Below are positions 15,855 through 54,217 of a stretch of 64,000 nt of DNA, in pieces (the first letter of the stretch is position 1; the number at the start of each line of letters is the position of its first letter). Below the pieces are notes generated by a model. That model made no database searches. It worked only from the letters and a program-made list of their open reading frames with translations, and was not told the origin of the DNA. This DNA comes from Chloroflexota bacterium (GTDB taxonomy: Bacteria; Chloroflexota; Dehalococcoidia; FW602-bin16), in the NCBI GenBank assembly GCA_004297765.1, contig SCTZ01000129.1:5113-69112 (forward strand), given 5' to 3'. A program made the position numbers and the translations under genes.

Positions 15855-18800
15855 GTGAACAAGCGCACGCTCACAACACTCGCGATACTCCTCTTTTCCT
15901 TCGCGCTGCTCCTGATGCCGCGCGGCGCTACTCCTATCAGCGCCGTCGCTCCGCCTCCCAGCGTCGATCTCCTCGGTCAGATCGGCGGTGGCGCGGTGGC
16001 CTTCGCCCTGCAAGGGAACTACGCCTATGTCGGCGTCGGCCCGCGGCTTGTCACGGTGGATATCACCGACCCAGCCCACATGACCGTGATCGGCCAGAGT
16101 GACGTACAGTCGAGTTACATCAGAGGCGTCGCGGTCTCCGGCAACTACGCCTACGCCGCCTCCGGCACTAGGCTGAACGTCTTCGACATCTCGAACGCCT
16201 CCCATCCGACAGCAGTCGCCGTCTGGGTTAGACCCACCAACACGCCCGGGCTCGCAGCCGGCATCACGGTAGTGGGCAGCTATGCCTATCTGGCCGATGG
16301 GGCGAGCGGTCTGAGGATCATAGACATCTCTGACCCATTGAATCCGAGTCAGGCCGGACACTACGTTACCCCGGGCGGCCAGGGCGGCGGCCAGGCCGTG
16401 AAAGTCGTCGGCAGCCTCGCCTACGTGGCCGATGGCCCGGGTGGTCTCCAGATCATCGACGTCTCTAACCCCAGCGCCCCCACATGGGTAGGTTCCTTCG
16501 CCAACTACGCCGAGCCCGCTCCCTCTACGCTGACGGGGAAGGCGCTCGGCGTCTTCGTGAACAACGGCCTCGCCTACGTGGGCGATGACCTGGGCTTGCT
16601 CATCGTCGACGTGAGCACACCGTCGAGCCCGAGCTTCGTCAGCTTCATCTCCACGGAGCAGTGCGGGCAGCACGGCGTCGGGCCCGGCGCCACGGACGTC
16701 TTCGTGGTCGGTGGTCGCGCCTACGTTGCCAACCAGGGCACCTGGGGTGACGTCCAGTCTGGACTCTACGTCCATTCCGGACTCTACATTGTCGACGTCA
16801 GCGCCCCAGCCACTCCTCAGTTTGTGGCCCAATGGGGTACTGATGTCAGGGATACAGGAACGGCGCACGGCATTGCCGTCTCCGGCGGCCACGCCTTCGT
16901 CGCGTTTAACGCCGGGCTGTTCCGTGCCGTCGACGTGGTGAACCTGCAGCCTTCCCATTATGCTGCCTGTCCGCCCGGCACGCCCAACCTGCTGCAGGCC
17001 GGCGACTACGTTCCGAAAATCGGCTCCTTGAATGGAGTCGTGGTGGAGAACGGGTATGCCTACGGCGCCAGTCCCTGGAACGGCCTCCGGGTCATGGACG
17101 TCTCGAACCCGGCCAGCCCATCCTGGGTCAGCACATTCGTGATGCGCCAGGCCTTTGGCATAGCCAAGAAAGGCGCCGATGTCTACATAGCCGGCAACGC
17201 ATGGCATCCGGACAGCTTCGCGGACGGACCCGGGCTCTGGATCCTGGACGTCGCCAATCCGGCCAATCCCACCGTGAGATCCAGCTTACTAACGCCAGGG
17301 ACCCCGAATGGCATCGCCCTCTCCGGCAGCTACGCCTACCTCGCGGAAGCCGCGTACGTGGACACGGGCACCGGGACTACCCGGGGCGTGAGCGGTCTGC
17401 GCATCGTCGATATCTCTAGCCCGGCCAACCCCACGCAGGTCGTGCTCGTGGCCACACCGGGTTCACCCAAAGCCGTCGCGGTGGTCGGCAACTACGCCTA
17501 CGTCGCCGCGGGAACCGCCGGTCTCCAGATCGTCGACGCCACAGTCCCCGCCAGCGCCAGTCTTGTCGCATCCTACCCACTGGCTGGCGGCGCGAATGCG
17601 GTCGACGTCGCGGTCGTGGGCAGCCGTGCTTACGTCGCCGGGGGATCTAACCTGCACGTCATCGACGTTTCCAACCCGCAATCGCCCAGCCTTGTTCGGG
17701 CTCTACCGGTGCGCAATAACGCGCTTGCTGTGAGCGTTGTGGACGACTACGCATACGTGGTAGACGGCACGAGCGGTCCGTCGAACAGCAGAGTCAGCGT
17801 CTTCGATCTCCTCTCCTCGAACACGACCCCGGTTGTTTCCTGGTTTGGCGCCGGAACCGGCGCCGACGTGGTCGTGACCGGCGGCCTGACCTATGTCCCT
17901 GGAAACTCGTCGGGTCTGTATATCGTCCGCTTCAACTTGCCAGTCCGGAACCAGCCCCCAACCGCCCAGGCCGGCACCTACAGCGTGCCCGAGGCCGGCT
18001 CGGTACAGCTCGCGGGCACGGGCACCGATCCGGACAACGACCCACTCACCTTCGCCTGGGACCTGGATAACGACGGGACATTCGAGACCTCAGCGCAGAA
18101 TGTGACCTTCTCCGCCGCCAACCTGGACGGTCCTGCCAGCCGAACAGTCGTGCTGCAGGTCTGCGACGGCAAGGGCGCCTGCACAACGTCCAACGGCGTC
18201 GTCAATGTTACCAACGTGCCGCCCATGGCAACGCTGAGCAACAACGGACCGGTCGACGCTGGCAGCCCTGCGACCATCAGCTTCAGCAACCCGTCTGATC
18301 CCTCCGGCGTGGACATCGCCGCCGGTTTCCACTACGCCTTCGCCTGCGACGGCGGGTCTCTGGACACAGCTCGATACGCCACCAGCGGCGCGTGGACCTC
18401 GACTCAGTGCACCTACGCCAGCGTCCCCAGCGATCACACCGTCCGGGGTCGCATTATCGACAAGGACGACGGCTTTGCCGAGTACACGACGGTCGTCCAC
18501 GTTAACAATGCCCCCGCGCCCGCTCCGACCGTCAATTACATCAATCAGATAGGTGGAGCGGCGCTCGCAGTTGCCATCCAGGGCAACCACGCCTATGTCG
18601 GCGTCGGTCCGCGACTCCACGTCGTGGACATCTCCGCCCCCGCGAACATGACCGTGGTAGGCATAAGCCAGGTCCTGCCGGCCGTCATCCGGGGTGTCGC
18701 GGTGTCGGGCGATGGCAACCGGGCGTACCTCGCGGCGGGCCAGCGCGGTCTGTACGTGTTCGACACCTCCAACCGTGCCCAGCCGGTGTTGATGGGCAAC

Positions 18801-21800
18801 TGGGATTCCCCGGGCTGGGCGACGGGTATCGCGGTGTCAGGCAGCTACGCCTTCGTCGCCGACGCCTCCAGCGGTCTGCGAATCGTCAACGTGGCCGACC
18901 CGTATCAGCCCGGCGAGGTCGGCTTCTACGACACACCGGGCAACGCCAACGCCGTCAAGGTGGTCGGCAACTATGCCTACGTCGCCGACGGCTCGGGTGG
19001 GCTGCAGATCATCGACGTCTCCAACCCCTCCGCTGCCGCATGGGTGGCCTCCTTTGCCAACTACGCCGAGCCCGCCCCCTCTACGCTAACAGGACAGGCG
19101 CTCGGCATCTTTGTCGATGGCGGCAAGGCCTACGTAGCGGATGATCTGGGTCTGCTCATCGTCGACGTCTCGAACCCCGCGGGCCCCAGCTTCCTCAGCT
19201 TCCAGTCCACGGAGCTCTGCGGGCAGCACGGCCTCAAGCCCGCCGCCACGGATGTGTTCGTGATGGGCACACGCGCCTACGTTGCCAACAGCAGCGGCTG
19301 GACTGGTGTGCCCGGTGGGTTCTACATCATGGACGTCACTACTCCCACCAGCCCTCAACTCGTCGCTCAGTGGGGCGGAAATCTGCCCGGCAGAGGGTCG
19401 ACGGACGCCATCGCGGTGGCCGGAGACTATGCCTTCACCGCCAACACCGACGGGCTGTTCCGCGCCGTCGATATCGTCAACCTACAGCCGGCCGACAACT
19501 GGATGTGCCCATGGGGTCTGCCCAACCTGCTACAGATGGGCGACTACGTCCCGAAGGTCGGCATATTCCGCGCAGTGGTGGTCGAAAATGGCTACGCTTA
19601 CGGCGCGAGCACGAACAAGGGTCTCCGCATCATGAACGTATCGAATCCGGCGGACCTGTTCTGGGTCAGCACGTTTGAGATGCGCCAGGCCAACGGAATC
19701 GCCAAGAAAGGCAGCGACGTCTACATCGCGGGCTCTAAGAACTACCAGAACGGCGATCTGGTCGACTACATGCCGGGGCTCTGGATTCTGGACGTCTCCA
19801 ACCCGGCCAGCCCCACCTATAAGTCGGGCCTCCAGACCCCGGGGACGCCCAACGGTATCGCTATCGCCGGCAACTATGCGTACCTGGCCGAGTCGACGTA
19901 TCAGGACCTTCTCGGCGCCAGGGGCACGGCCGGGCTGCGCGTTGTCGACATCACCCAGCCGCTGAATCCTGTCGACGCGGGTTTTGTTAGTACGCCGGGG
20001 GCCTACCCCAACGCCGTTAAGGTGGTCGGCAACTACGCCTACATCGCGGCAGGCTCAGGCGGGTTGCAGATCGTCGATATCACCAACCCACTCGCCGCCA
20101 TCCTTGTCAGCTCCTTCCCAGTGCCCGGCCAGGCCACCGACGTCACGGTGGTCGGCAGCTACGCATACATCGCGGCAGGCTCAGCGGGATTGCAGATCGT
20201 CGACGTATCCAACCCGCAGCAGCCGGCTATTGCGCGGGCGATTCCGACATCAGCTCCCGCTATGGCGGTGGCGGTCTCGAACAACCTGGCCTACGTGACG
20301 GATGGCGCCTCCCGCAGCGAGAACGCCGGACTGCGCATGTTCGACCTCTCCTCGCCGAGCACATCCCCTGTCGTGTCCTACGAGCTCGGCGTGGGCTCGA
20401 ACGACATCGTGGTAACAGACGGCAAGGCCTACCTGGTTGGCTTCGGTGGGCTGTACGTCTTCTCGACCAGCGGCGGCAACCAGCCGCCCTCGGCCCAAGC
20501 CGGTACCTACAGTGTGCCCGAGAGCGGCTCCGTTCAACTGGTGGGGACGGGCTCCGCCCCGAACAACAGCCCCCTGTCCTTCAGTTGGGACCTGAACAAC
20601 GACGGAACGTTCGAGACGTCCGGACAGAGCGTCACGTTCTCGGCCGCCGGTCTCGACGGGTCCTCCAGCCAGATCGTGACACTGCAAGTCTGCGACGGCA
20701 GGGGCGCCTGTGCCACCTCCGAAGGCGTCATCAGCGTCACCAACGTGGCCCCCACGGCGACACTCAGCAACGATGGACCCATCAACGAAGGCGGCGTCGC
20801 GAACATCATCTTTAGCAACCAGTTCGATCCCGGACGGACCGACACGACCACCGGCTTGCACTTCGCCGTCTCCTGCTACGGCGTCTTCACGACCACAGTC
20901 ACGTACGCCGGTAGCGGTGCCAGTCCTTCCATCCCCTGCTCGTTTCGCAACGGGACCCAAAATCGCACCGTCTACGGCCGCATTATCGACAAGGACGACG
21001 GGTACACCGAGTACACCACGGTGGTCGTCGTCAACAACGTCGCCCCGACGGTGACGCCACCGGCCGATCAGAGCTCCAACGAGGGCTCCTCGGTCGTCTT
21101 CTCCCTGGGCTCCTTCGCAGATCCCGGCACAGTCGATTACCCCTGGACCGTCGACGTCGACTGGGGCGACGGCTCGGCCCATACCGCTTTCACCACCAGC
21201 ACCCAGGGACCGCTGGGCATGCAGCCACACACCTTCGCAGACAACGGCGTCTACCTCGTCACCGTCAAGGTGACCGACAAGGACGGCGCTCCTGGTGCGG
21301 CAAGCTTCCACGTGACCGTGTCTAACGTGGCGCCCACCGGTACCCTGAGCAACAACGGGCCGATCAACGAGGGCAGCGCCGCCACCGTCGGCTTCACCAA
21401 CCAGACCGACCCGTCCAGTGTCGACCTCACAGCCGGCCTGCACTACGCCTTCACCTGCGACGGGGGCTCGTTGGCTGCCGCAACCTATGCCAGCAGCAAT
21501 ACCAGCGCCTCCACCATCTGCCCGGCCGTCGACAATCCGGGCTACACCGTCAGGGCACGCATCATCGACAAGGACGGTGGATTCAGCGAGTACACCGGCA
21601 CGGTCGTCGTCAACAACGTCCGACCGACTATCGGCGTGATCAGCGGTCCGGTGGCCCCGCTGCAGGTGAACACGATCGTCACCACCACCGCGTCCTTCAC
21701 CGACCCCGGCATTCTGGACAATCACACGGCGGTCTGGGACTGGAATGACGGTCAGACCTCGACCGGCGCAGTGACAGAGATCAAAGGCTCAGGGAGCGTT

Positions 21801-22361
21801 CTGGGCAGCCATACCTACACTGCCGCTGGTGTCTACACCGTCCGCCTGACTTTGACGGACAAGGACGGCAGCTCCGACCAGGCCGTATACCAGTCCTACG
21901 TCGTGATCTACGATCCAGGGGCTGGCTTCGTCACTGGCGGCGGCTGGATCAATTCGCCAGCCGGGGCTTACGCCCTCGACGCATCGCTCACGGGTCGGGC
22001 CAACTTTGGGTTCAACTCCAAGTACCTGCCGGGACGAACTGCGCCGAGCGGACAGACCGAGTTCCAGTTCAAGACCGCCAATCTGAACTTCCACAGCGAA
22101 GACTACGAGTGGCTGGTCGTCTCGGGTCGCAAGGGTCAGTATCGGGGCACCGGCACCGTCAGCGGACAGGGGAGCTACGGCTTCCTGCTGACCGTTATCG
22201 ACGGCGATCTGAGCGGCGGTGATGGCATCGACCGGTTCCGCATCAAGATCTGGGACAAGAACAAGGGCAACGGTCTGGTCTACGACAACCAGAGCGGGGC
22301 CGACGACACGGCCGACCCGACCACGGCCCTGGCGGGAGGCAGCATCGTCATCCACAAGTAG
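15855..22361 (+). CDS. Giant secreted LVIVD-repeat beta-propeller / PKD-domain protein (adhesin-like)
   Basis: 2168 aa from a GTG start, with signal peptide MNKRTLTTLAILLFSFALLLMP. It has dozens of LVIVD-type units (GLRIIDISDP, GLQIIDVSNP, GLLIVDVS, LHVIDVSNP). PKD-like domains are also present (DPDNDPLTFAWDLDNDGTFE; WDWNDGQTSTG...HTYTAAGVYTVRLTLTDKDG). A C-terminal domain reads GGGWINSP...DRFRIKIWDK. Confidence 0.9.
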   Translation: MNKRTLTTLAILLFSFALLLMPRGATPISAVAPPPSVDLLGQIGGGAVAFALQGNYAYVGVGPRLVTVDITDPAHMTVIGQSDVQSSYIRGVAVSGNYAYAASGTRLNVFDISNASHPTAVAVWVRPTNTPGLAAGITVVGSYAYLADGASGLRIIDISDPLNPSQAGHYVTPGGQGGGQAVKVVGSLAYVADGPGGLQIIDVSNPSAPTWVGSFANYAEPAPSTLTGKALGVFVNNGLAYVGDDLGLLIVDVSTPSSPSFVSFISTEQCGQHGVGPGATDVFVVGGRAYVANQGTWGDVQSGLYVHSGLYIVDVSAPATPQFVAQWGTDVRDTGTAHGIAVSGGHAFVAFNAGLFRAVDVVNLQPSHYAACPPGTPNLLQAGDYVPKIGSLNGVVVENGYAYGASPWNGLRVMDVSNPASPSWVSTFVMRQAFGIAKKGADVYIAGNAWHPDSFADGPGLWILDVANPANPTVRSSLLTPGTPNGIALSGSYAYLAEAAYVDTGTGTTRGVSGLRIVDISSPANPTQVVLVATPGSPKAVAVVGNYAYVAAGTAGLQIVDATVPASASLVASYPLAGGANAVDVAVVGSRAYVAGGSNLHVIDVSNPQSPSLVRALPVRNNALAVSVVDDYAYVVDGTSGPSNSRVSVFDLLSSNTTPVVSWFGAGTGADVVVTGGLTYVPGNSSGLYIVRFNLPVRNQPPTAQAGTYSVPEAGSVQLAGTGTDPDNDPLTFAWDLDNDGTFETSAQNVTFSAANLDGPASRTVVLQVCDGKGACTTSNGVVNVTNVPPMATLSNNGPVDAGSPATISFSNPSDPSGVDIAAGFHYAFACDGGSLDTARYATSGAWTSTQCTYASVPSDHTVRGRIIDKDDGFAEYTTVVHVNNAPAPAPTVNYINQIGGAALAVAIQGNHAYVGVGPRLHVVDISAPANMTVVGISQVLPAVIRGVAVSGDGNRAYLAAGQRGLYVFDTSNRAQPVLMGNWDSPGWATGIAVSGSYAFVADASSGLRIVNVADPYQPGEVGFYDTPGNANAVKVVGNYAYVADGSGGLQIIDVSNPSAAAWVASFANYAEPAPSTLTGQALGIFVDGGKAYVADDLGLLIVDVSNPAGPSFLSFQSTELCGQHGLKPAATDVFVMGTRAYVANSSGWTGVPGGFYIMDVTTPTSPQLVAQWGGNLPGRGSTDAIAVAGDYAFTANTDGLFRAVDIVNLQPADNWMCPWGLPNLLQMGDYVPKVGIFRAVVVENGYAYGASTNKGLRIMNVSNPADLFWVSTFEMRQANGIAKKGSDVYIAGSKNYQNGDLVDYMPGLWILDVSNPASPTYKSGLQTPGTPNGIAIAGNYAYLAESTYQDLLGARGTAGLRVVDITQPLNPVDAGFVSTPGAYPNAVKVVGNYAYIAAGSGGLQIVDITNPLAAILVSSFPVPGQATDVTVVGSYAYIAAGSAGLQIVDVSNPQQPAIARAIPTSAPAMAVAVSNNLAYVTDGASRSENAGLRMFDLSSPSTSPVVSYELGVGSNDIVVTDGKAYLVGFGGLYVFSTSGGNQPPSAQAGTYSVPESGSVQLVGTGSAPNNSPLSFSWDLNNDGTFETSGQSVTFSAAGLDGSSSQIVTLQVCDGRGACATSEGVISVTNVAPTATLSNDGPINEGGVANIIFSNQFDPGRTDTTTGLHFAVSCYGVFTTTVTYAGSGASPSIPCSFRNGTQNRTVYGRIIDKDDGYTEYTTVVVVNNVAPTVTPPADQSSNEGSSVVFSLGSFADPGTVDYPWTVDVDWGDGSAHTAFTTSTQGPLGMQPHTFADNGVYLVTVKVTDKDGAPGAASFHVTVSNVAPTGTLSNNGPINEGSAATVGFTNQTDPSSVDLTAGLHYAFTCDGGSLAAATYASSNTSASTICPAVDNPGYTVRARIIDKDGGFSEYTGTVVVNNVRPTIGVISGPVAPLQVNTIVTTTASFTDPGILDNHTAVWDWNDGQTSTGAVTEIKGSGSVLGSHTYTAAGVYTVRLTLTDKDGSSDQAVYQSYVVIYDPGAGFVTGGGWINSPAGAYALDASLTGRANFGFNSKYLPGRTAPSGQTEFQFKTANLNFHSEDYEWLVVSGRKGQYRGTGTVSGQGSYGFLLTVIDGDLSGGDGIDRFRIKIWDKNKGNGLVYDNQSGADDTADPTTALAGGSIVIHK

Positions 22362-43250: not shown

Positions 43251-43375
43251 ATTCATCCCCGCACCTACGATCACGTCTCACTCAAATACGCATTCCATTA
43301 GATCCATTGATCACAGAATAATGGTTCCTGGTCCCATCCTCCGCACTCGTATCGTTGGCGAAGGAAGCGTCCCGT

Positions 43376-44419
43376 ATGGCTCTATCCGATATACGTCTGC
43401 ATTCCGAAGAGAACGAAGAGCAACTGGCCCCCTTCGCGGCGCGCAGTCGTCTCTCGCGCGGTCGGGAACGACCGGAAGAGCCCTGCCCGGTGCGCACAGC
43501 GTACCAGCGGGACCGGGACCGGATCCTCTACTCCAAGGCCTTCCGCCGTCTGAAGCACAAGACCCAGGTTTTCATTGCTCCGCAGGGCGATCACTACATC
43601 ACACGCCTCACGCATACGCTGGAGGTAGCGCAACTGGCCAGGACCATCGCGCGCGCCCTCCGGCTGAACGAAGATCTAACCGAGGCGATCTCTCTTGGGC
43701 ACGACCTGGGACACACGCCCTTCGGCCACGCCGGAGAGGAGGCCCTAAATGCCGTCTGCCCCAGCGGCTTCCGCCACCAGGAGCAGAGCCTGCGCGTAGT
43801 AGACCATCTGGAGAAGGACGGCCGTGGACTCAACCTGACCTGGGAGGTTCGCGAGGGCATCCTAAAGCATTCGAAGCCCCGCGTCAGCATTATGGCCCAT
43901 TTCGCCGGCCCGCCCAGCACCCTGGAGGCGCAGGTGTGCCGGCTGGCCGACTCGATCGCGTACATCAACCACGACGTGCCGGATGCCATACGGGCCGGCA
44001 TCATCGCCGAGGAGGATCTGCCGCCGCGCGCAGTTCAGACGCTGGGACACACGCCCCGGGAGCGCATCAACACCCTGGTCTGCGATGTGATCGCATACTC
44101 GCTACCCAGCCTTGAGCCCGGCAGCCAACAACCGCGCATCGAGATGAGCCCGCAGGTTCTCGAAGCGGCTAACCTGTTGCGCGAGTTTCTTTTCCAGCGC
44201 GTCTACACCAGCGAGGCCATGCGCAAGGAGAGCGACGAGGCCCGCAAGCTCATCGCTGGCCTGTACGAGCATTTCCTGGCCCATCCGGAAGAGTTACCAC
44301 CAGAGCTGCTCCGCGCCGGCGAAGTCGAGCGCGCCGTCGTCGATCACATCGCGGGCATGACCGATCGCTACGCTCTGGAGACGGCGCGGGAGCGGGGGCT
44401 GGGAGCAACACCGCCATGA
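43376..44419 (+). CDS. dgt: dGTP triphosphohydrolase-like HD-domain protein
   Basis: FQRDRDRILYSKAFRRLKHKTQVF and ...DHYITRLTHTLEVAQLAR...LGHDLGHTPFGHAGE are canonical Dgt-family motifs. The start is either the ATG at 43376 or the TTG at 43355. Confidence 0.85.
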   Translation: MALSDIRLHSEENEEQLAPFAARSRLSRGRERPEEPCPVRTAYQRDRDRILYSKAFRRLKHKTQVFIAPQGDHYITRLTHTLEVAQLARTIARALRLNEDLTEAISLGHDLGHTPFGHAGEEALNAVCPSGFRHQEQSLRVVDHLEKDGRGLNLTWEVREGILKHSKPRVSIMAHFAGPPSTLEAQVCRLADSIAYINHDVPDAIRAGIIAEEDLPPRAVQTLGHTPRERINTLVCDVIAYSLPSLEPGSQQPRIEMSPQVLEAANLLREFLFQRVYTSEAMRKESDEARKLIAGLYEHFLAHPEELPPELLRAGEVERAVVDHIAGMTDRYALETARERGLGATPP

Positions 44420-46278
44420 GCGCCATCGAGGAGATCAAGGAGCGCATCGACATCGTCGAGCTGGTTGGTCAGTATACCCAGCTCAAGAAGTCTGGGCGCA
44501 CCTTCAAGGGCCGTTGTCCGTTCCACAACGAACGCACAGCTTCTTTCGTCGTGTATCCGGACGACTGGAGCTATCATTGCTTCGGCTGCCACGTCCACGG
44601 CAACGGCTTCGACCTAATGATGTCCCTGGAGAAGCTCAGCTTCAGCGAGGCTCTGCAGCGTCTAGCTGAGCGGGCCGGGGTGGCCGTCACCCCGCGCCGT
44701 TCCAAAGAAGAGGATGCCTCACGACAACAGATCGACCGCCTACGTCAGATGCACGAGGCCACTGCGCAGTATTATCATCACCTGCTCCTGAACAGCAGCC
44801 AGGCTAGCGCGGCCCGGGCCTACGTGGAGAAGCGCGGCTTCCTGGAAGCCACGGTGAAACAGTTCCAGCTCGGCTACGCTCCAGCCTCCTGGGAGGCGCT
44901 GCTGGGCTATCTGCACGAGCGCGGCTACGGGGAGGAGGAGCTGCTCCGCGGCGGGTTGGTCGTGTCGCGTGAATCGGGCGGCTGCTACGATCGCTTTCGC
45001 GATCGTCTGATCTTCCCGATTCGCGATCGCGACGGACATATGCTGGGCTTCGGCGCACGCGCGCTGGATAACTCAGTTCCCAAGTACCTGAACTCGCCCC
45101 AAACGCCGCTTTTCGACAAGAGCGCGATCCTGTATGGCATTCAGCTGGCCCGCCCCTTTATGGAGAAGCAAAATCAGGTTATAATAGTAGAAGGTTATGT
45201 CGATGTTATTACCGCGCATCAGCATGGCGTACAAAACGTCGTCGCCGCGATGGGCACAGCTCTGACCGAGAGGCAGGTGGGAATCCTGAAGAGGTTAACC
45301 AAATCCGTCGTGCTCGCTCTCGATGCGGACGCGGCTGGAGAGGGAGCGACCCTGCGCGGCCTGGACGTGGCCCGCGGCGCCCTGGATCAAAAAGTTGTTC
45401 CCGTGCCAACCTGGCGCGGCATCATTCGTTATACGCGCGCCCTCGACGCGGACATCAAGATCGCGGCGCTTCCGCGTGGTCAGGACCCCGACGACGTCAT
45501 CCGCGCCGATCCCACCACCTTTACGCGCCTGATCGATCAGTCCTTGCCGATCATGGATTTCCTGCTGACTACAAAGACCGCCGATCTCGACCTCAGTCGC
45601 TCCCGGGACAAGGCCAAGGCGGCAGAGCGCTTGTTGCCTTACATCGGCGATCTGCCCGATCCCGTGGAGCAGGCTCACTATCGTCAGAGATTGGCCCGTC
45701 TGCTGCAGGTGGATGAGCGCGCGCTGGAACAGGCCGCACGCCAGTCCGCCGATGAAAGCGCGGCAGGGAAAGGGCGCCCCGCGACCCGCGAGCAGGCTCA
45801 GCCCGCCATGACATCCCCGGGAGATGCCCAGGAGGAATACTGCCTGGCGCTGCTGCTGCAACGGCCCACGCTAAAGCCATGGTTGCTCCAGATCCGGGCT
45901 GAAGAGTTCCGCCAGGTAGAGAACCGGCAGCTCTTTTTCGCCTTGAAGGAGGTCAGGCAGATCGAGAAGCTGAGAGAAGACCTGGATCCGGTGCTGCATA
46001 AGCACCTGGACCACCTGCTTGCCTTGCCTTTGCCAGCTGGAGCTCCCCCGGAGAAGGCTATGGCCAGCACGGTACAGCGACTGCGTCTGCGTAACTTGCG
46101 TCAGGACATGCTGCGCATCGCCCACCTGCAGCGGGAGTCGCTGGAGGGGGGAGACGCGGTTCAGACCGAGGAGCTTCAACAGCGCTCGGCCGAGTTGGCC
46201 TCGGCCATCCACGCCGCCGAGAGAGCATCTCCCGCGGCCGCGCCGATGGGAGACATCGAGACCGATCAAAGCGGCTAG
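44416..46278 (+). CDS. dnaG: DNA primase
   Basis: The zinc-binding domain is GRCPFHNERTASFVVYPD...YHCFGCHVHGN. RNA polymerase core and TOPRIM motifs are present (IIVEGYVDVI, LALDADAAGEGA). The ATG overlaps the dgt stop (ATGA). Confidence 0.95.
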   Translation: MSAIEEIKERIDIVELVGQYTQLKKSGRTFKGRCPFHNERTASFVVYPDDWSYHCFGCHVHGNGFDLMMSLEKLSFSEALQRLAERAGVAVTPRRSKEEDASRQQIDRLRQMHEATAQYYHHLLLNSSQASAARAYVEKRGFLEATVKQFQLGYAPASWEALLGYLHERGYGEEELLRGGLVVSRESGGCYDRFRDRLIFPIRDRDGHMLGFGARALDNSVPKYLNSPQTPLFDKSAILYGIQLARPFMEKQNQVIIVEGYVDVITAHQHGVQNVVAAMGTALTERQVGILKRLTKSVVLALDADAAGEGATLRGLDVARGALDQKVVPVPTWRGIIRYTRALDADIKIAALPRGQDPDDVIRADPTTFTRLIDQSLPIMDFLLTTKTADLDLSRSRDKAKAAERLLPYIGDLPDPVEQAHYRQRLARLLQVDERALEQAARQSADESAAGKGRPATREQAQPAMTSPGDAQEEYCLALLLQRPTLKPWLLQIRAEEFRQVENRQLFFALKEVRQIEKLREDLDPVLHKHLDHLLALPLPAGAPPEKAMASTVQRLRLRNLRQDMLRIAHLQRESLEGGDAVQTEELQQRSAELASAIHAAERASPAAAPMGDIETDQSG

Positions 46279-46488
46279 GCGCCGAAACCGATCCCTCGAT
46301 CTGCAGCCTGGTGCAAGCTATCTCATAGCCCGAAGGCCAGACAGGGGGAAACACATCACAAAATCCTGCGTTCGGTCCCCAGGGGGGCCGCAAGCAAGTC
46401 TGGCCAACGGGCGACAATACGTGGTCGACGACGCTACCTGGTTCTGACCGTCGCCCGCACACCGATGGCCCATGGAGGGGGAGGAGAG

Positions 46489-47784
46489 ATGACCCACGGA
46501 CTGGAGGAAAAACCGGAGGTTGATCAGCTGTTCATTAAGGCGAGAGAGCAAGGCTATGTAACTCCCGACGATATCCTCCAGGCGATCCCGGCGCCCGAGG
46601 CAGACGTGGAGGCCGTCGACGAGCTGTACATCCAACTGGCCGACCTCAACATTCCAGTCATGGAAGAGACGGCAACTCCGGCCTGGGCGGCCGTCGTAAC
46701 GGCTTTGCCGCACGCCGATGAGGCCGAGCCCAAGCTGGATGAGCTCGAGGAGATAAAGATCGAGCCGATCCTGGAGATCGACGATCAGGACGCCATGGAC
46801 GATCCCGTCCGCGTCTACCTGCGCGAGATCGGGCGCGTCTCGCTCCTGACCGGTCCCGAGGAGGTGGTCCTGGGCAAGGCCATGGAGCGCGGACTCGTCG
46901 CACGCCAGCGCCTGGCCGCCGGGACCTACAACTTCGACGAGCGGGTCCAACTGGAGTCTGAGATGCGCATGGGTGTCATTGCACGCAGGCGCCTCACCGA
47001 GGCCAATTTGCGCCTGGTGGTCAGCGTGGCCAAGAAGTACATCGGTCGCGGCATGTCCCTCCTGGACCTGATTCAAGAAGGGAACATCGGGCTAATTCGC
47101 GCTGTCGAGAAATTCGACTACCACAAAGGATACAAGTTCAGCACCTACGCCACCTGGTGGATTCGCCAGGCCATCACGCGCGCCATCGCCGATCAGGCCC
47201 GCACCATCCGCATCCCCGTCCACATGGTCGAGGCCATCAACAAGCTGGTGCGTGTGACGCGCCGCCTGGTCCAGGAGCTAGGGCGCGAGCCCACCAGCGA
47301 GGAGATCGCGCTGGAGATGGGGCTACTCCCCGAGCAGACCGAGGCGGAGATTCGCGAATGCCTATCCATGCGCATGCCTCTTCACCCGCACCTGGCCACC
47401 GAGCTGGAGCGCTGCGCGGTCAAGGTGCGCGAGATCATGAAGGCCTCGCAGGAGCCCGTGTCCCTGGAAACGCCCATCGGCGAGGAAGAAGATAGCCATC
47501 TGGGCGACTTTATCGAAGACCATGCCGCCCAGGCCCCCGCGGACGCAGCATCGCACCAACTACTCAAGGAGCAGGTAGAGGGCGTGCTGGACTCGCTGAC
47601 CTACCGCGAGCGCCGCGTGCTCCAGCTCCGCTTCGGGCTGGACGACGGCCGCAGCCGCACGCTGGAGGAGGTCGGTCGCGAGTTCGGCGTCACCCGCGAG
47701 CGCGTCCGCCAGATCGAGGCCAAAGCCCTCCGCAAGCTCCGCCACCCCAGCAGAAGCAAGAAGCTCAAGGACTATTTGGACTAG
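46489..47784 (+). CDS. rpoD: Primary RNA polymerase sigma factor (sigma-70/SigA)
   Basis: Region 2 is [74 protein letters not shown]. Region 4 is [30 protein letters not shown]. The ATG at 46489 follows a GGAGGGGGAGGAGAG RBS; an alternative ATG is at 46465. Confidence 0.95.
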
Positions 47785-47790
47785 GGCGCT

Positions 47791-47826
47791 AGGGGTTGGG
47801 GGTTGGTCCTCCAACCCCCAACCCCT
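47791..47826. terminator. Perfect 16-bp stem hairpin (AGGGGTTGGGGGTTGG-TCCT-CCAACCCCCAACCCCT) between the convergent rpoD and the HEAT-repeat gene
   Basis: Read directly. It starts 7 nt after the rpoD stop and is positioned to terminate both convergent transcripts. Confidence 0.75.
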
Positions 47827-47865
47827 ACCAGAGCGTACTGTTAGATGAAACGGCAGCCCGTCGTG

Positions 47866-48591
47866 CTATGTTTCCTTTGCCGTCTTCTTGTCTATCTTGG
47901 CGAGCGCGCGCTTCGCCTCGTTACGAATCCAGGTCGTGGGGTGATTGACGAAGCGCTCGATGTAGGATCGCGCCCGCGGGGGCGCCAGTTTCCGGAGCGC
48001 CATCAGGGCATGGCCCGCCACCTCCTCATCGTCTAGAAGCTCGATGAGCACGTCCACTGCCCGGGGGTTCTTCATGTTAGCCAGCGCAAGAGCCACCATC
48101 TCGCGCGCTTTTCCGTGCTGCCGGTCCCGCACCAACTCGACGATCTCATTGAATACACTGTCGTCGGCCACCACAGACAGGGCGTTGCCAACCGTCCATC
48201 GCATGTCTGAAGCGGGAAAGGTGGGCACTCGACGATATTCCTGAATGAGCACCGGGGCTGCGATGGGTTTCGCCCACTTCACCGAAAGAGCGCGCACAAT
48301 GTCGCTCTTGACGCGGAGGTTCTCCATGCGGGGAAGCCACCGTAGCAAGATGGGAATGACGGGCTCGTAGTAAAGCGGTGTTCCGTATAGCTCGCCAATC
48401 GTTTCCACTGGAAACCCGGTCTCCGCCAGTTCTGCTAGCACGGGAGCCGCCGCCAGGGCATATTCCCTCCTGGCCTCCTGCTGTCTTATCTCCCGTTCTG
48501 CCTGGCGGGCGATGTAGGCTGGGTCTTGCTCCAGTTCGGCGAGCAGCTCGCCAGCGGTTATGCGCCCCTTGCGCGCACGACGAGCCGTCAT
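47866..48591 (-). CDS. HEAT/armadillo-like repeat protein, candidate immunity protein for the upstream toxin tip
   Basis: 241 aa, all-helical. HEAT-like units are present (VRALSVKWAKPIAAPVL, REMVALALANMKNPRAVDVLIELLDDEEVAGHALMALRKL, TWIRNEAKRALAKI). Its ATG overlaps the toxin ORF stop (ATGA at 48588-48591). Confidence 0.6.
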   Translation of the reverse strand: MTARRARKGRITAGELLAELEQDPAYIARQAEREIRQQEARREYALAAAPVLAELAETGFPVETIGELYGTPLYYEPVIPILLRWLPRMENLRVKSDIVRALSVKWAKPIAAPVLIQEYRRVPTFPASDMRWTVGNALSVVADDSVFNEIVELVRDRQHGKAREMVALALANMKNPRAVDVLIELLDDEEVAGHALMALRKLAPPRARSYIERFVNHPTTWIRNEAKRALAKIDKKTAKET

Positions 48592-49136
48592 GGTAGGAGC
48601 CTATTCAAAGTGATGACGCCCTGTTCGATAGCGTCTTCAAGCGGTCCAGACAGGCTAGTATCCTGTCGCACGATAAGCTCGAAATCATACCCTTTCGTCT
48701 GCGCGTAGGTGGCAATATCCCGCAGCTGTTTGGTGTACGATAGGCTTCCCACGTTCTTTACCTCTCTGATCAAATTGCTTCCCTGCACTATCTCGTCGGG
48801 AATACGATAGCCGCCTCCTGGCGTGACGATGCGCCGCGTGTTCCTGGTTATCCCGGCGAGTTCCTCACCCGCGTGCCCCAATTGCCGGACCTTGGCCATC
48901 TTGGTGGCCATTTTGGCCCCGGTTGCGTATCCCCCGCCCGGCCCAGCCGCTCCCACGAGGAAGAGCCCGGTCACACCAACCTTCTCTTTGAGGCTGGCCT
49001 CTGGGTCCTGCCACGTCTGAACGGTGGTCACGGCATCCAGGACCGACGAGCCGATCTCGAAGGCCACCCAGGCGGCCATGACACAGACCGGACAATGTCC
49101 CGTTGGATCGGTCAGCGTCGCCGTATTCGACCTTCG
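48588..49136 (-). CDS. Polymorphic-toxin C-terminal tip with a PD-(D/E)xK (restriction-endonuclease-fold) motif, preceded by an RHS junction motif
   Basis: The frame is open from 49136 and reads RRSNTATLTDPTGHCPVCVMAAWVAFEIGSS...GGYRIPDEIVQGSNLIREVKNVGSLSYTKQLRDIATYAQTKGYDFELIV. TLTDPTGH resembles the DPxGH end of RHS cores. RIPD...IREVK is a PD...ExK nuclease signature. The first ATG is at 49079. Confidence 0.65.
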   Translation of the reverse strand, partial: RRSNTATLTDPTGHCPVCVMAAWVAFEIGSSVLDAVTTVQTWQDPEASLKEKVGVTGLFLVGAAGPGGGYATGAKMATKMAKVRQLGHAGEELAGITRNTRRIVTPGGGYRIPDEIVQGSNLIREVKNVGSLSYTKQLRDIATYAQTKGYDFELIVRQDTSLSGPLEDAIEQGVITLNRLLP

Positions 49137-50325
49137 TCACGGCCGTCCGCTGTCCGAGATCAGGGTCGGTATACCGAGCGGTCGTGGACTCCAGCTTGGT
49201 CTGAGTGGCCGCGTCGTAGGTCATGTCGGTCGCGTGGAGCAGGTTGACGCTGCCGCTCAAGTTCGTGCCGCAGTCAACGCTGACACCACTACTGACGCCG
49301 CGCGGCGGGACCACCTGGATCAGGTTGTTCTTACCGTCGTACTGATACAAGGTTACCGGACGGAAGGCGCCAACGGATGGCACTGGCTCGATCTTCCTAG
49401 TCAGGTTGCCCTTGCTGCCGGCGATGGCCACACCGGCGTAGTCGACGTCGTAGCAGAAGTTGGTGATCTGGCCACTCCCATCGGTGATCGAGGTGAGCCT
49501 GGCACTGGCATCGTAGCCAAACTGTTGAGTGACGTCCTCTGCCGAGCTCGCAGTTGGCCGGGCAATACGCCGAATCATCCGGCCATTGCTGTCATAGGTG
49601 TCCTCGACCTTGGGATTCCATGATGGATCAGCCGAGGCGGGCGGGTACGTGACAATGGTCGTGGTCGTGCCGTCACCGTTGGTCGTGTACGTGAAGCTGG
49701 TTTGATTTCCCATCGCCAGTCCCTGAGCATCTTTCTGCGCGGAGACCCGGCCCTGCGCATCGTAGATATTGGTCACTGCCACGTTGCCACGGGCATCGGT
49801 GATAGTCGTCAGACGACTGCTGGTGCCATCGTACGCGTAGGTGGTCACCTTGCCCTCGCGGTCAGTCACGGTCGAGAGCCGGCCGCTGGCATCGTACCCG
49901 TACTGCACCGTCCTGGTCGGCGTCATCCAGTCGCTCACGCTGATGAGGCGTCCACTCCCCGAGTCGTAGCCGAAACTGAGCGCACCGCGCCCCGCCGGAT
50001 CGCTCACAGAGACCAGTTGGCCGCCGGCGTTGTACGTCAGCGTCGACTGGTTGCCGTAGCGGTCCTTGATCGCCGTGAGCCTGCCGCCGCTGTCGAAGCT
50101 CCAAGTAGTCTGGTCCTTATGGGTGACCGTGTAGGTAGCATCAACGTTCTTGACCAGGGTGGTGTTTACCCCGAGGGCCGGCGTGAAGCTGCCGTCCGGA
50201 TTACGCGTGTAGCGATCGCTGCGCCCCTGTGGACCGACGAGGATTACGTCGCCCGTTCCGCCGCCGGCGCTGTTCACCTGCGCGTTGTAGCTGTCCGTCC
50301 AGCCGGGACCGAGCCGCCCGCTCCA
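49114..50325 (-). pseudogene. RHS/YD-repeat segment (about 400 aa), in frame with the upstream RCC1 ORF but separated from it by a TGA, and out of frame with the toxin tip
   Basis: The segment opens WSGRLGPGWTDSYNAQV.. and continues with about 15 YD-type repeats (GRLTAIKDRYGNQSTLTYNAGGQLVSVSDPAGR, YGYDASGRLSTVTDREGKVTTYAYD, TNIYDAQGRVSAQKD...). After ...TKVEYGDA the frame becomes Arg/Gly-rich nonsense. Confidence 0.8.
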
Positions 50326-51882
50326 TCAGTCGTTGCTGTTGTACGCGCGGGCAAAGGCCGGACTTGGCCCTCGTCCGGGGATGGCCAGATCCCCGTGGTC
50401 ATAGGTGTAGCTACCATTAGAGGTATTGACGGGATCCTGGCTCAATCCGGTCCAGGATTGGCGATTATCCGCGATGGTCTGCCAATTGGTGCGCACTGCA
50501 GGAGTCGATGCAGCTATCGCCAGGCTGTGGCCACCACGGCCTGCCGCCACAGCTGTTACTCCATTAAGGCCAAGTGCCCGCACCGGCACGGTCCGATTAT
50601 CTTGGGAGCCATCGCCCAACTGATCGCTGCCGTTGGCGCCCCAGGTCCAGACAGTTCCGTCGCTCTTCAAGGCCAAGCTGTGCGTCCAACCGCCCGCGAT
50701 CGCCACCACCCCGGTTAGATGGTCGACACCTTCGGGTCCCAATACCTGGACGGGTAGGAGCTGATTCGGTGCCGTGGTGCCGTTACCGACCGCTCCGAGC
50801 CAATTCTGTCCCCAGGCCCAGACGGTGCCATCGCTCTTCAGGGCCAAGCTGGTCCCATCCCCGGCCGCAATCGCTACCACGTCGCTCAGATAGCCGGTAT
50901 CCTCAGGATTCCTCACTTTGACCGGCGTGTGACGCTCCGTCCGCGTGCCATCGCCCAACTCGCCCCCATTGTTGTACCCCCAGGCCCAGACGCTGCCATC
51001 GCTCTTCAAGGCTAAGCTGTGCCCGTCCCCACCCGCGATCGCTGTCACGCCCTGTAGATAACTGCTGGGATCATTAGGATCGCTTACCTGAATCGGAGTG
51101 TAACTACCCGAAGTCGAATTGTTGCCGAGCTGCCCCCAATTGTTTCGCCCCCAAGTCCAGACGGTACCATTCCCTTTGACTGCGATGCTGTGGTATGACC
51201 CTGCCGCGATGGCGGTAACATCGGTTAGGCTGCTGGTCACTGTGATAGGCGTGGTACTATTGCTTGTTGAACCATCACCCAACTGACCATAGGCGTTTGA
51301 GCCCCAAGCATGGACCATACCGTCCGGCGTGAGAGCCAGGCTATGATCGCCATGCGCCGCTACTGCAGCCACCTCGCTCAGGAGAGTTACGGTCACCGGT
51401 GTAAGGCTGCCATTGTAACTGCCGATACCCAGTTGTCCGTAGGTGTTGTTGCCCCAGCTCCAGGGGTGCATCGTCGAAGGCACCGACTCGAATGTAGCCA
51501 CGGCTTGGGCTGGCTGGGTACCGGGCACTACCAGCCCCGTGGCAGGGCTGCCCGAGCGGTCCGTCAAGCCCTGTTGACTCCTTGGACGGGAAACTGGCGC
51601 CTGTGTCGTGGACATAGCGGTCAGGGACAGAGCCGCCGAGCTAGATGCAGGCGTGGGGTCTAACCCCCCAGCCACGGCTGCCGATGCCGCTCCGAGCCCC
51701 GCAGGCATCTGCGCCCATAGGATCGCCATCACGATTAAGATGGTCAAGCTGTTCAAACCCAATCTCCGCCGCACCGTTCCAGCCTCCTGCTCCATAACTC
51801 GCAGCCATCCTGGACTTCCCCATTGTGCATAGCTGCTTACCAACAATGGAGTGATACCAAGCAAGTATGCACGGATGATCAA
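50326..51882 (-). pseudogene. Signal peptide plus RCC1-repeat beta-propeller, N-terminal part of the RHS toxin, ending at an in-frame TGA
   Basis: A likely start at 51795 gives MEQEAGTVRRRLGLNSLTILIVMAILWAQMPAGLGAASA. Six to seven RCC1 blades follow (WSWGNNTYGQLGIG, HAWGSNAYGQLGDG, WTWGRNNWGQLGNN, WAWGYNNGGELGDG, WTWGANGSDQLGDG). The C-terminus DPVNTSNGSYTYDHGDLAIPGRGPSPAFARAYNSND* is the conserved RHS-associated N-terminal region and continues in the same frame after the stop. Confidence 0.8.
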
Positions 51883-52048: not shown

Positions 52049-54217
52049 ATGCACAAACTCAGGTACATCTTGCCCGCACTAATCGTCTCACTGCTGTTGT
52101 TCAACCTGCCCGCCGGAATGGTCTCCGCGCTGGCGGCCGACAACTCAGCCCGCGTCGGCGCCAATGTGTCGGTGCCCGTCGCCCCTCCCGACTTCGGTTA
52201 TGGTGTGAACTTCGGCAATCCGAGGGGATGGTATAACCCCGGCCTCGCCACCGTCGCGGCCGCCGCGGGTGCCAACTCCGCTCGGATCAAGCTCCCGGAG
52301 TACCACTTCGCCCGCTGGGGCTACGACATCGAGTTCGCTAACGGCGACATGGCGGCTTACAGGTCTAACGGGTTAACCAATCTGACGGGTATGTTGATCG
52401 GTCCCACAGCCGCCCACTCCAATTCCCCTACAGGTGGCAGACTTGACCAGTACTCGCCCAAGAACCTGTACCAGCCGATCTGGTCGAGCCCCGGTGTGGT
52501 CAACCCCAACAACTATTGGGCGAACCACGTCTACCAGACCGTAAGCAGGTACAAGGGGTACGTCAAGATCTGGGAAGTCTGGAACGAGCCGGATAACACC
52601 CCGAACTGGCAACTCACCCAGAGCTCCTGGTGGACATCACCCCCGCGCCCACAGGATCTGCCCTGGTGGAATGATACGATCTTCGCCTACATTCGCATGC
52701 TGCGCGTCACCTATGAGGTCGCCAAGGCGGTCGATCCGAGTAGCTTCGTGGCAGTCGGCGGTCTGGCTTACGAAAGCTTCCTGGACGCGATCCTGCGCTA
52801 CACCGACAATCCGGCCGACGGGTCGGTCACCGCGGCCTATCCGGCCCGCGGCGGCGCCTGGTTCGACGCGGTCAGCTACCATCACTACCCGCAGTACGCG
52901 ACCTATGACCAGGCGAACCAGACCTGGCTGCGCGGCACTGATTCCGACGCCATGGCCACCAGCTTCGTCGCCCATAAGAACACCATGCAACTGCAACTGG
53001 ACCGCTGGGGATATAACGGAACGACCTATCCAAAGAAGCTGTGGCTAGTGACCGAGACCGGCGTTAGCTCTAAACCGATCAGTGGGCTGGCGGGTGGACC
53101 GGAATTGGCACGCAATTACCTGCTCAAAGTGCCGATCCTGGCCCAGGCCAACGGCGTATCCCAGATCGACTGGTACATGCTTACCGACACCGAAGCGGAT
53201 AGCTACGCTAGCAGCCCGTTCGCCCACATGGGGCTCTACTACAACCTGGCCGGCCAGACGGTCGCTACCGCGCGAATGAAGCCGTCAGGAGTGGCCTTCG
53301 ATACCTTCGGCACGGTCACGCGCGGCGCTCGTTTCGATGCGGCGGCGACAGCGGCGTTGGCTCTCCCCGCCAGCGCGCGCGGCTATGTCTTCCGCCTGCC
53401 AGACGGCCGCAAGATCTACGCCCTGTGGGCCAAGACCAGCGGCAACAGCGAGGCCGCGAGCGCGACGGTGCAATTGCCTACAGGAGTTCCGCTGCAGAAG
53501 CGGCTGTGGGATTCCTCTGCCACCGGGGCAACCAGCCTGCTCACACCCACGGGAGGCAATGTATCCATCACCCTGACGGCCGCCCCGCTCTTCCTGACCG
53601 AGACAACCAGCAGTGGGGGCTCCATCATACTTCCCCCCAGCCCGACTGCCACGCCACCTGTCGCCACGACGACGCCTACCGTGCCGCCGGCGACGGCGAC
53701 GCCCACCGTGCCACCCGCGACGGCGACGCCCACACCCACGATCACACCGGTGCCCACGATCTCGCCGGCTGGGCAGCTACTGACAAACGGAGGCTTCGAG
53801 AGCGCGCTGGCGAGCTGGTTCGTGCCAGCGTGGTTCTCTGCCACCGCCAGCATTACGAGCGCCGTGCCCCATGGCGGCGCGAAGGCGCTGCAGTTCAAGG
53901 GCAACGTTATGGGGCCCTACACCTTTCAAGAGGTGGTCGCGCGGCCCGGTCAAAAGATCGACTTCTCCGGTTGGATGAACGTCACGGAACGATACAACGA
54001 CAGCACGGTGGCGGTGGAATTGGTGGCCCGAAACTCTTACAACGGCGTTCTGGCGACCTTCCCGATCACTACCAACTCCAGCATGACCGCTGGATGGGTC
54101 CCGATCAGTGGCTCGGCAGTGATGCCGGCTAGAACAGCCAAGGTCCGGCTTCAGATCCGCTTTTCGAGGCTGCACGGAACCTTCTTGTTCGACGACCTAT
54201 CTCTTCGGGGGAACTAG
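52049..54217 (+). CDS. Secreted clan GH-A (TIM-barrel, cellulase-like) glycoside hydrolase with PT linker and C-terminal carbohydrate-binding-module-like domain
   Basis: 722 aa with a signal peptide. The acid/base motif is KIWEVWNEPDN and the nucleophile motif is LWLVTETGVS. The PT linker contains a tandem TPTVPPATA. The C-terminal LLTNGGFESALASW...GGAKALQFKGN... is CBM4_9/CBM22-like. The GH family was not assigned. Confidence 0.75.
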   Translation: MHKLRYILPALIVSLLLFNLPAGMVSALAADNSARVGANVSVPVAPPDFGYGVNFGNPRGWYNPGLATVAAAAGANSARIKLPEYHFARWGYDIEFANGDMAAYRSNGLTNLTGMLIGPTAAHSNSPTGGRLDQYSPKNLYQPIWSSPGVVNPNNYWANHVYQTVSRYKGYVKIWEVWNEPDNTPNWQLTQSSWWTSPPRPQDLPWWNDTIFAYIRMLRVTYEVAKAVDPSSFVAVGGLAYESFLDAILRYTDNPADGSVTAAYPARGGAWFDAVSYHHYPQYATYDQANQTWLRGTDSDAMATSFVAHKNTMQLQLDRWGYNGTTYPKKLWLVTETGVSSKPISGLAGGPELARNYLLKVPILAQANGVSQIDWYMLTDTEADSYASSPFAHMGLYYNLAGQTVATARMKPSGVAFDTFGTVTRGARFDAAATAALALPASARGYVFRLPDGRKIYALWAKTSGNSEAASATVQLPTGVPLQKRLWDSSATGATSLLTPTGGNVSITLTAAPLFLTETTSSGGSIILPPSPTATPPVATTTPTVPPATATPTVPPATATPTPTITPVPTISPAGQLLTNGGFESALASWFVPAWFSATASITSAVPHGGAKALQFKGNVMGPYTFQEVVARPGQKIDFSGWMNVTERYNDSTVAVELVARNSYNGVLATFPITTNSSMTAGWVPISGSAVMPARTAKVRLQIRFSRLHGTFLFDDLSLRGN

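Follow-up and report, generated by a model that had tools for sequence, protein, structure and literature searches.

The subject of this analysis is a stretch of 64,000 nucleotides (the window) from contig SCTZ01000129.1 of a metagenome-assembled genome (MAG) of a Chloroflexota bacterium, and in particular a minus-strand locus in which a Tox-REase-7 nuclease domain is followed by a gene for a HEAT-repeat protein. The best explanation of this locus, to which we give a probability of about 0.8, is that an RHS-type polymorphic toxin locus has decayed and that this is its 3' end, where the toxin tip and an immunity gene of the Imm-HEAT type are left. A first-pass annotation, made from the sequence alone, had already pointed to a candidate toxin-immunity pair behind a broken RHS body, an arrangement with which the present results agree. 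The features which make up the locus are the following, from upstream to downstream on the minus strand.

50329..51882, minus strand: N-terminal part of the former toxin, with a hydrophobic N-terminus, an RCC1-like beta-propeller and the start of DUF6531 (Pfam).
50326..50328, minus strand: in-frame TGA (...AYNSND, stop, WSGRLGPGW...) which interrupts a once-continuous RCC1-DUF6531-RHS frame.
49125..50325, minus strand: truncated RHS/YD-repeat shell (RHS_repeat E 3.9e-27, with YD_repeat_2x matches), out of frame with the tip.
48588..49136, minus strand: open frame of the toxin tip, 182 codons and a stop (translation).
49095..49118, minus strand: TLTDPTGH, last residues of the RHS core, including the DPxGH demarcation and autoproteolysis motif (translation, intact relatives and DNA homology to a second relic, L061).
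48879..49094, minus strand: pre-toxin linker (CPVCVMAAWVAFEIGSS...GPGGGY...KVRQ), helical and of low confidence in the AlphaFold2 (AF2) model, with no Pfam family.
48639..48878, minus strand: Tox-REase-7 (PF15649) PD-(D/E)xK nuclease domain (Pfam match and motif columns).
48878-48864, 48803-48795, 48764-48756 and 48731-48717, minus strand: the tip motifs GHAGE, IPD, EVK and KQLRD, respectively (translation).
47866..48591, minus strand: 241-aa HEAT-repeat immunity gene of the Imm-HEAT type (Pfam HEAT_2, AF2, Foldseek and conserved position).

The tip frame opens right after a TGA at 49139-49137, its first residues being RRSNTATLTDPTGHCPVCVM... / RRSNTATLTDPTGHCPVCVMAAWVAFEIGSS..., and runs through a remnant of the RHS core end, the pre-toxin linker and the nuclease domain up to a TGA at 48590-48588. 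As the first-pass annotation had it, the frame starts at 49136 and carries TLTDPTGH near its beginning; DPTGH and what follows it up to the stop amount to about 168 aa, close to the tip of roughly 165 aa originally estimated. TLTDPTGH is the sole surviving piece of the RHS core in the window. Since the cores of three intact relatives (L004, L022 and L050) end in the same pattern, ...YAYVNNxPxxxxDP[ST]GHC, where the boundary is also given as ...NDP[SG]GHC, it can be taken as a genuine core-end remnant, which agrees with its initial interpretation as the demarcation motif. The linker, modelled by AF2 with a predicted local distance difference test score (pLDDT) of 31-62, shares 81% DNA identity with the relic L061. 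No Pfam family matched the 79-aa linker between core end and toxin even at E up to 10, and the PT-TG pre-toxin domain (PF14449), considered as its identity, was rejected on this ground.

The nuclease domain is covered in full by its Pfam profile, positions 1-84 of 84 being matched with an E of 2.9e-20 and 72.7 bits (cut-off 25). The segment that had been singled out as a PD...ExK signature, RIPDEIVQGSNLIREVKNV at 48806-48750, falls within this match. Moreover, the signature given for Tox-REase-7 consists of GxxxE, IxD, ExK and Q (Zhang, de Souza, Anantharaman, Iyer and Aravind 2012, Biol Direct 7:18, PMC3482391), and all four family motifs are present in the tip, as GHAGE, IPD, EVK and KQLRD, aligned with conserved columns in 31 relatives from other genomes. 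In the AF2 model the nuclease part alternates helices and beta-strands with a pLDDT of 78-94. These data support the assignment of the tip as a PD-(D/E)xK-family toxin domain of the Tox-REase-7 type, as judged from profile and motifs.

The gene directly downstream starts within the end of the tip frame, since its ATG (48591-48589) overlaps the TGA of the tip (48590-48588) to form ATGA at 48591-48588, as was noticed at the outset. The open reading frame (ORF), 48591..47866, encodes a protein of 241 aa that matches HEAT_2 (E 2.4e-13) and also HEAT_PBS in Pfam. The all-helical, HEAT-like nature initially attributed to it is in accordance with the AF2 model, a solenoid of 13 helices with a pLDDT of 93.4. 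The closest solved structures are alphaRep/HEAT-like binder scaffolds, which Foldseek also returned. A total of 584 relatives of this protein were found. The product is 100% identical to an NCBI protein of the source MAG, encoded on a contig of 70,672 nt, where it is labelled 'HEAT repeat domain-containing protein'.

The link between both genes was established by a survey in which an alignment of 27 HEAT-protein relatives (50-64% identical) was scanned against one genome per species, yielding 60 loci, and the upstream nuclease was detected with a hidden Markov model built from relatives of the tip. The loci came from Chloroflexota, Planctomycetota, Verrucomicrobiota, Actinomycetota (including isolates of Arthrobacter, Streptomyces, Kibdelosporangium and Amycolatopsis), Armatimonadota, Acidobacteriota (including Acanthopleuribacter), Proteobacteria and Patescibacteria. 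For 34 of these 60 loci, which span Chloroflexota, Planctomycetota, Verrucomicrobiota, Actinomycetota, Acidobacteriota and Patescibacteria, among others, the HEAT gene had the nuclease domain directly upstream and in the same orientation; the first-pass annotation had named homologs that are never adjacent as what would speak against a pair, and the opposite was clearly found. Furthermore, a 4-nt overlap of toxin stop and HEAT start, (A/G)TGA, was present in 21 of the 33 loci scored. The search for the same tip on other delivery domains, also proposed at that stage, was fruitful: according to Pfam, Tox-REase-7 occupies the C-terminus of a DUF6531-RHS protein (L040), of an SpvB/TcdB/FG-GAP-RHS protein (L007), of RHS proteins (L008 and L029), of an RHS plus PT-HINT protein (L033) and of a protein with ALF repeats plus PT-HINT (L060). 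Because of the adjacency, the variety of toxin scaffolds and the shared overlap, the reading of the HEAT gene as the cognate immunity gene of the Tox-REase-7 tip is well supported by comparative sequence data.

The remaining arrangements are those of a polymorphic-toxin immunity gene in its standard behaviour. About 22 of the 60 HEAT genes are orphans in unrelated contexts (beside a kinase, a diacylglycerol kinase, PIN, DMP19 and others), 4-5 adjoin eroded tip fragments, and in three loci 2-3 tandem HEAT paralogues follow a single toxin (L033 8007-10048, L045 6349-8594 and L047 7923-9603), the hosts being Fimbriimonadia, Holophagae and Acanthopleuribacter pedis. As an observation apart, MAGs of Patescibacteria (candidate phyla radiation) encode an RHS-Tox-REase-7 toxin with a HEAT immunity gene (L029 5201-8567 and L042 1-4339), that is, an RHS weapon in episymbionts of reduced genome.

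As regards the delivery part, the first-pass annotation had held the RHS body to be broken, and this is indeed the case. The N-terminal part matches WD40_RLD (5.4e-75), RCC1 (2.4e-74) and, barely, DUF6531 (3e-05, 24.7 bits against a cut-off of 24.1). The propeller and the start of DUF6531 lie in ORF 51882..50326 and the YD repeats in ORF 50277..48865, both in the same frame and separated by the single TGA at 50328-50326. Recoding of this TGA was considered and rejected, TGA being an ordinary stop in the window, including the end of the tip itself. Once joined, the body aligns by BLAST colinearly across the TGA with residues 267-625 of a 1485-aa RHS toxin of Arthrobacter (L040) and also with residues 893-1275 of L019. 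The shell left, about 400 aa, corresponds to the first 360 aa or so which follow DUF6531 in an intact relative. The core end of L040, DPFGM, is situated near residue 1275 (an estimate, taken from the 130 residues before the nuclease domain) and its Pfam nuclease match begins at 1389; compared with this protein, some 650 aa of shell are absent, and so is the core domain. In fact, the RHS core model found no match in the body in the window. Moreover, body and tip do not share a frame (1 and 2, respectively), the change falling at the junction, around 49125. Neither the missing RHS half nor a second tip/HEAT copy was found elsewhere in the window, and no intact rhs gene lies within its 64 kb. The locus lacks a complete shell and a continuous reading frame, so the delivery part appears, from its sequence, to be dead and what is left to be an orphan toxin/immunity relic.

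A related contig, L061, shows 81% DNA identity to the window confined to 49124-48846, the homology starting six bases upstream of TLTDPTGH. In this contig a linker reading 'T[T/A]TLTDPTGHCP...KVRQ' abuts an RCC1 repeat fragment (L061 1-430) and stops before the nuclease. L061 thus looks like another relic, eroded further than that in the window, and its homology sets in at the same boundary as the junction in the window. It may be added that an RCC1 propeller stands ahead of DUF6531 in the dead toxin, and that in L061 an RCC1 fragment is fused directly to the tip linker.

Several points weigh against a decayed toxin locus with a nuclease tip and its immunity gene. The source is a MAG, where the YD repeats could have collapsed during assembly to give the deletion, and the TGA or the frameshift could be errors. 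A tip ORF without any lesion is also a little surprising in a gene that died long ago. With regard to structure, a Foldseek comparison of the AF2 tip model with PDB entries yielded no match at E<=1e-3 (best E 0.06); the weak list was enriched in PD-(D/E)xK nucleases (MspJI, AspBHI, Ecl18kI, arenavirus and bunyavirus cap-snatching endonucleases, and CdiA-CT 4g6v), none of them significant. The tip sequence found nothing among PDB chains at E<=1, and an NCBIfam search of the tip returned no family. Since neither Foldseek nor the PDB sequence search gave anything significant, the fold assignment rests on Pfam and the motifs. Lastly, the literature searched holds no experimental study of any HEAT-type immunity protein, and it is in this experimental sense only that the pair is uncharacterised, as the first-pass annotation had described it.

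Some of these points would fit a locus which is in fact an intact, functional RCC1-RHS-Tox-REase-7 toxin gene, the stop, the frame change and the short shell being artefacts of metagenome assembly (collapse of YD repeats and wrong bases). Assembly of RHS repeats is difficult, and both the tip, with all its catalytic motifs, and the immunity gene are kept. Nevertheless, three independent lesions would all need to be artefacts, and the other long genes of the window are uninterrupted: AcrB matches its model from 3 to 1020 of 1021, and PPDK, DnaG and RpoD are likewise whole. In addition, the junction places a YD repeat next to a position just before TLTDPTGH, and the same boundary in the independent relic L061 fits a real recombination or deletion at the cassette boundary. 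An intact gene is therefore considered unlikely; real decay is favoured over assembly error because those other long genes are undamaged. A housekeeping role for the HEAT protein (e.g. PBS-lyase/NblB-like), with a merely coincidental position beside the toxin, could draw on its weak NCBIfam similarity to NblB and CpcE, which is far under the cut-offs (24 bits against 300). This role is effectively refuted by the same-strand adjacency to Tox-REase-7 kept across many phyla, usually with the 4-nt overlap, and the tandem arrays of HEAT genes after one toxin also speak against it; assignment as an NblB/CpcE-type lyase was rejected on score and on gene context.

Another explanation is that the tip and HEAT genes form a self-contained intracellular toxin-antitoxin (TA) module, for addiction or abortive infection, in which the toxin would start at ATG 49079 and no delivery machinery would take part. 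An open frame does run from this ATG, with the immunity gene coupled to it; the first-pass annotation had suggested that the tip might still be expressed in this way. The ATG does exist, and the NCBI annotation starts the tip ORF exactly there, as a 'hypothetical protein' of 163 aa (P0001 of the source MAG, locus tag EPO21_11645, 100% identical). Its use as a start is nevertheless doubtful on the sequence evidence. The Met is an internal, non-conserved linker residue, CPVCVMAAW in the window against CPICIVGLV in relative P0002, which has Gly/Val at this point. No Shine-Dalgarno-like sequence was seen before it, and a promoter and terminator scan around the tip, tuned to sigma-70 / Escherichia coli, gave nothing above shuffle expectation. 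Stand-alone cassettes are known from metagenome contigs, where a 104-aa Tox-REase-7 ORF, with stop codons upstream, has an ATGA overlap with a 200-aa HEAT gene (L062 7081-8914, L063 and L064), is preceded by a 228-aa Tox-HDC protein and a 65-aa ORF, and is flanked, as a set, by two near-identical units of primase (about 1030 aa) and integrase. Such cassettes, which would favour a TA module, have already been explained as silent recombination reservoirs (PMC3482391). Hence, a TA module is improbable for the locus in the window, and it is about as improbable that decapitated or stand-alone Tox-REase-7 plus Imm-HEAT cassettes in general, L062-L064 included, are expressed intracellular TA (addiction or anti-phage) modules; if they were, a documented route turning polymorphic-toxin tips into TA systems would be at hand.

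Under the favoured reading of a decayed RHS-type toxin locus, the original gene would have encoded an RCC1-propeller-DUF6531-RHS shell protein, with a C-terminal tip released after the DPxGH motif. The Tox-REase-7 tip would most likely act as a metal-dependent DNase, breaking the chromosome of the recipient and killing the cell. In the cytoplasm of the producer, the Imm-HEAT alpha-solenoid, translationally coupled via the ATGA, would bind the tip 1:1 and may block its DNA-binding or active-site face. The delivery part would then have been lost through the nonsense TGA, the loss of some 650 aa of shell together with the autoproteolytic core, and the shift of the tip out of frame, leaving an orphan toxin cassette and an intact immunity gene. 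The latter would have been retained, probably still protecting the cell against the Tox-REase-7 toxins of its neighbours.

The pairing itself is not a new system. The Tox-REase-7/Imm-HEAT combination was already catalogued in 2012 by comparative genomics, the immunity proteins of Tox-REase-7 being given as 'ImmHEAT, Imm23, Imm54' and the partner in the 'HEAT repeats' entry as 'Tox-REase-7' (PMC3482391), so the initial impression of an unrecognised pair does not stand; the window holds a new, pseudogenised Chloroflexota example. Both cases share the toxin domain (full-length in Pfam, with the four motifs), a HEAT protein directly downstream and, as regards the relatives of the window locus, the delivery scaffolds (RHS and HINT). 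They differ in that the delivery body is pseudogenised in the window and in that the 2012 lists for Tox-REase-7 and for the HEAT immunity proteins are without Chloroflexi/Chloroflexota; the catalogued pair is a prediction. In the literature searched, the terms 'Imm-HEAT', 'ImmHEAT' and 'HEAT repeat immunity' are used by that work alone.

Regarding the activity of the toxin family, CdiA2-CT of Acinetobacter baumannii DSM30011, a Tox-REase-7 toxin, breaks DNA irreparably and has a neutralising immunity protein, its CdiI (Roussin et al. 2019, PMC6831553). It belongs to the same Pfam family as the tip and its immunity protein is also encoded downstream, whereas delivery is by type V CdiB/CdiA in a proteobacterium, in contrast to the RHS shell of the window, and the type of immunity protein (CdiI2 versus HEAT) may differ. 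In addition, two type VI secretion system effectors of Campylobacter jejuni with a Tox-REase-7 domain contribute to killing (bioRxiv 10.64898/2026.03.25.714310).

On the side of the immunity protein, the closest solved folds, the alphaRep and PBS-HEAT repeat proteins (PDB 3ltj and 6gwc, among others), are HEAT-like solenoids which bind protein targets on their concave face. These are artificial binders or phycobilisome-related proteins with no toxin link, and the likeness is one of repeat scaffold only. A parallel to the organisation of the relic exists in Enterobacteria, where orphan rhs-CT/rhsI modules, that is, displaced C-terminal tips with their immunity genes, lie downstream of rhs genes. 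They have in common with the window a tip with a few core-end residues (DPxG..) and an immunity gene, with no functional N-terminal body. The difference is that the relic in the window is still joined to its truncated body, whereas the enterobacterial orphans are situated downstream of an intact main rhs gene.

The surroundings of the locus comprise the following additional feature and several neighbouring genes.

47790..47827, no strand assigned: perfect 17-bp inverted repeat, TAGGGGTTGGGGGTTGG / CCAACCCCCAACCCCTA, with a 4-nt loop, between the convergent rpoD and HEAT genes.

This repeat lies in the 81-nt gap which parts rpoD (ending at 47784) from the HEAT gene (ending at 47866), and is probably a bidirectional terminator hairpin, as far as its sequence tells. 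On the plus strand, three consecutive ORFs (43355-44419, 44416-46278 and 46465-47784) encode, by eye, a dGTPase-like HD protein, the DnaG primase and the RpoD sigma factor. The G+C content is 0.60-0.62 across the relic and 0.62-0.66 in these neighbour genes. Because they directly adjoin it, the relic is taken to be chromosomal, with no obvious island. Further away, a 2168-aa ORF (15855-22361, plus strand) with 14 LVIVD repeats (E 1.6e-158) and PKD and Big_9 domains would correspond to a giant surface or secreted beta-propeller protein. Also, a 722-aa ORF (52049-54217, plus strand) lies in divergent orientation to the toxin locus. Its N-terminus is hydrophobic and, by eye, resembles a signal peptide, and it includes a linker rich in Pro and Thr (TPTVPPATATPTVPPATATPTPTITPVPT); the ORF matched no Pfam family at E<=1e-4.

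In terms of annotation, two genes can now be named as a Tox-REase-7 toxin remnant and an Imm-HEAT immunity protein, and the ORFs upstream as an RHS pseudogene. The pair is, moreover, a clean candidate for structural work; we know of no Tox-REase-7 structure and of no complex with a HEAT-type immunity protein. Finally, the survey provides what are, to our knowledge, the first explicit numbers for the linkage of Tox-REase-7 and Imm-HEAT, with adjacency in 34/60 loci, overlap in 21/33, around a third of the HEAT genes as orphans and the occurrence of tandem arrays, and it places this toxin-immunity system in Chloroflexota and Patescibacteria.

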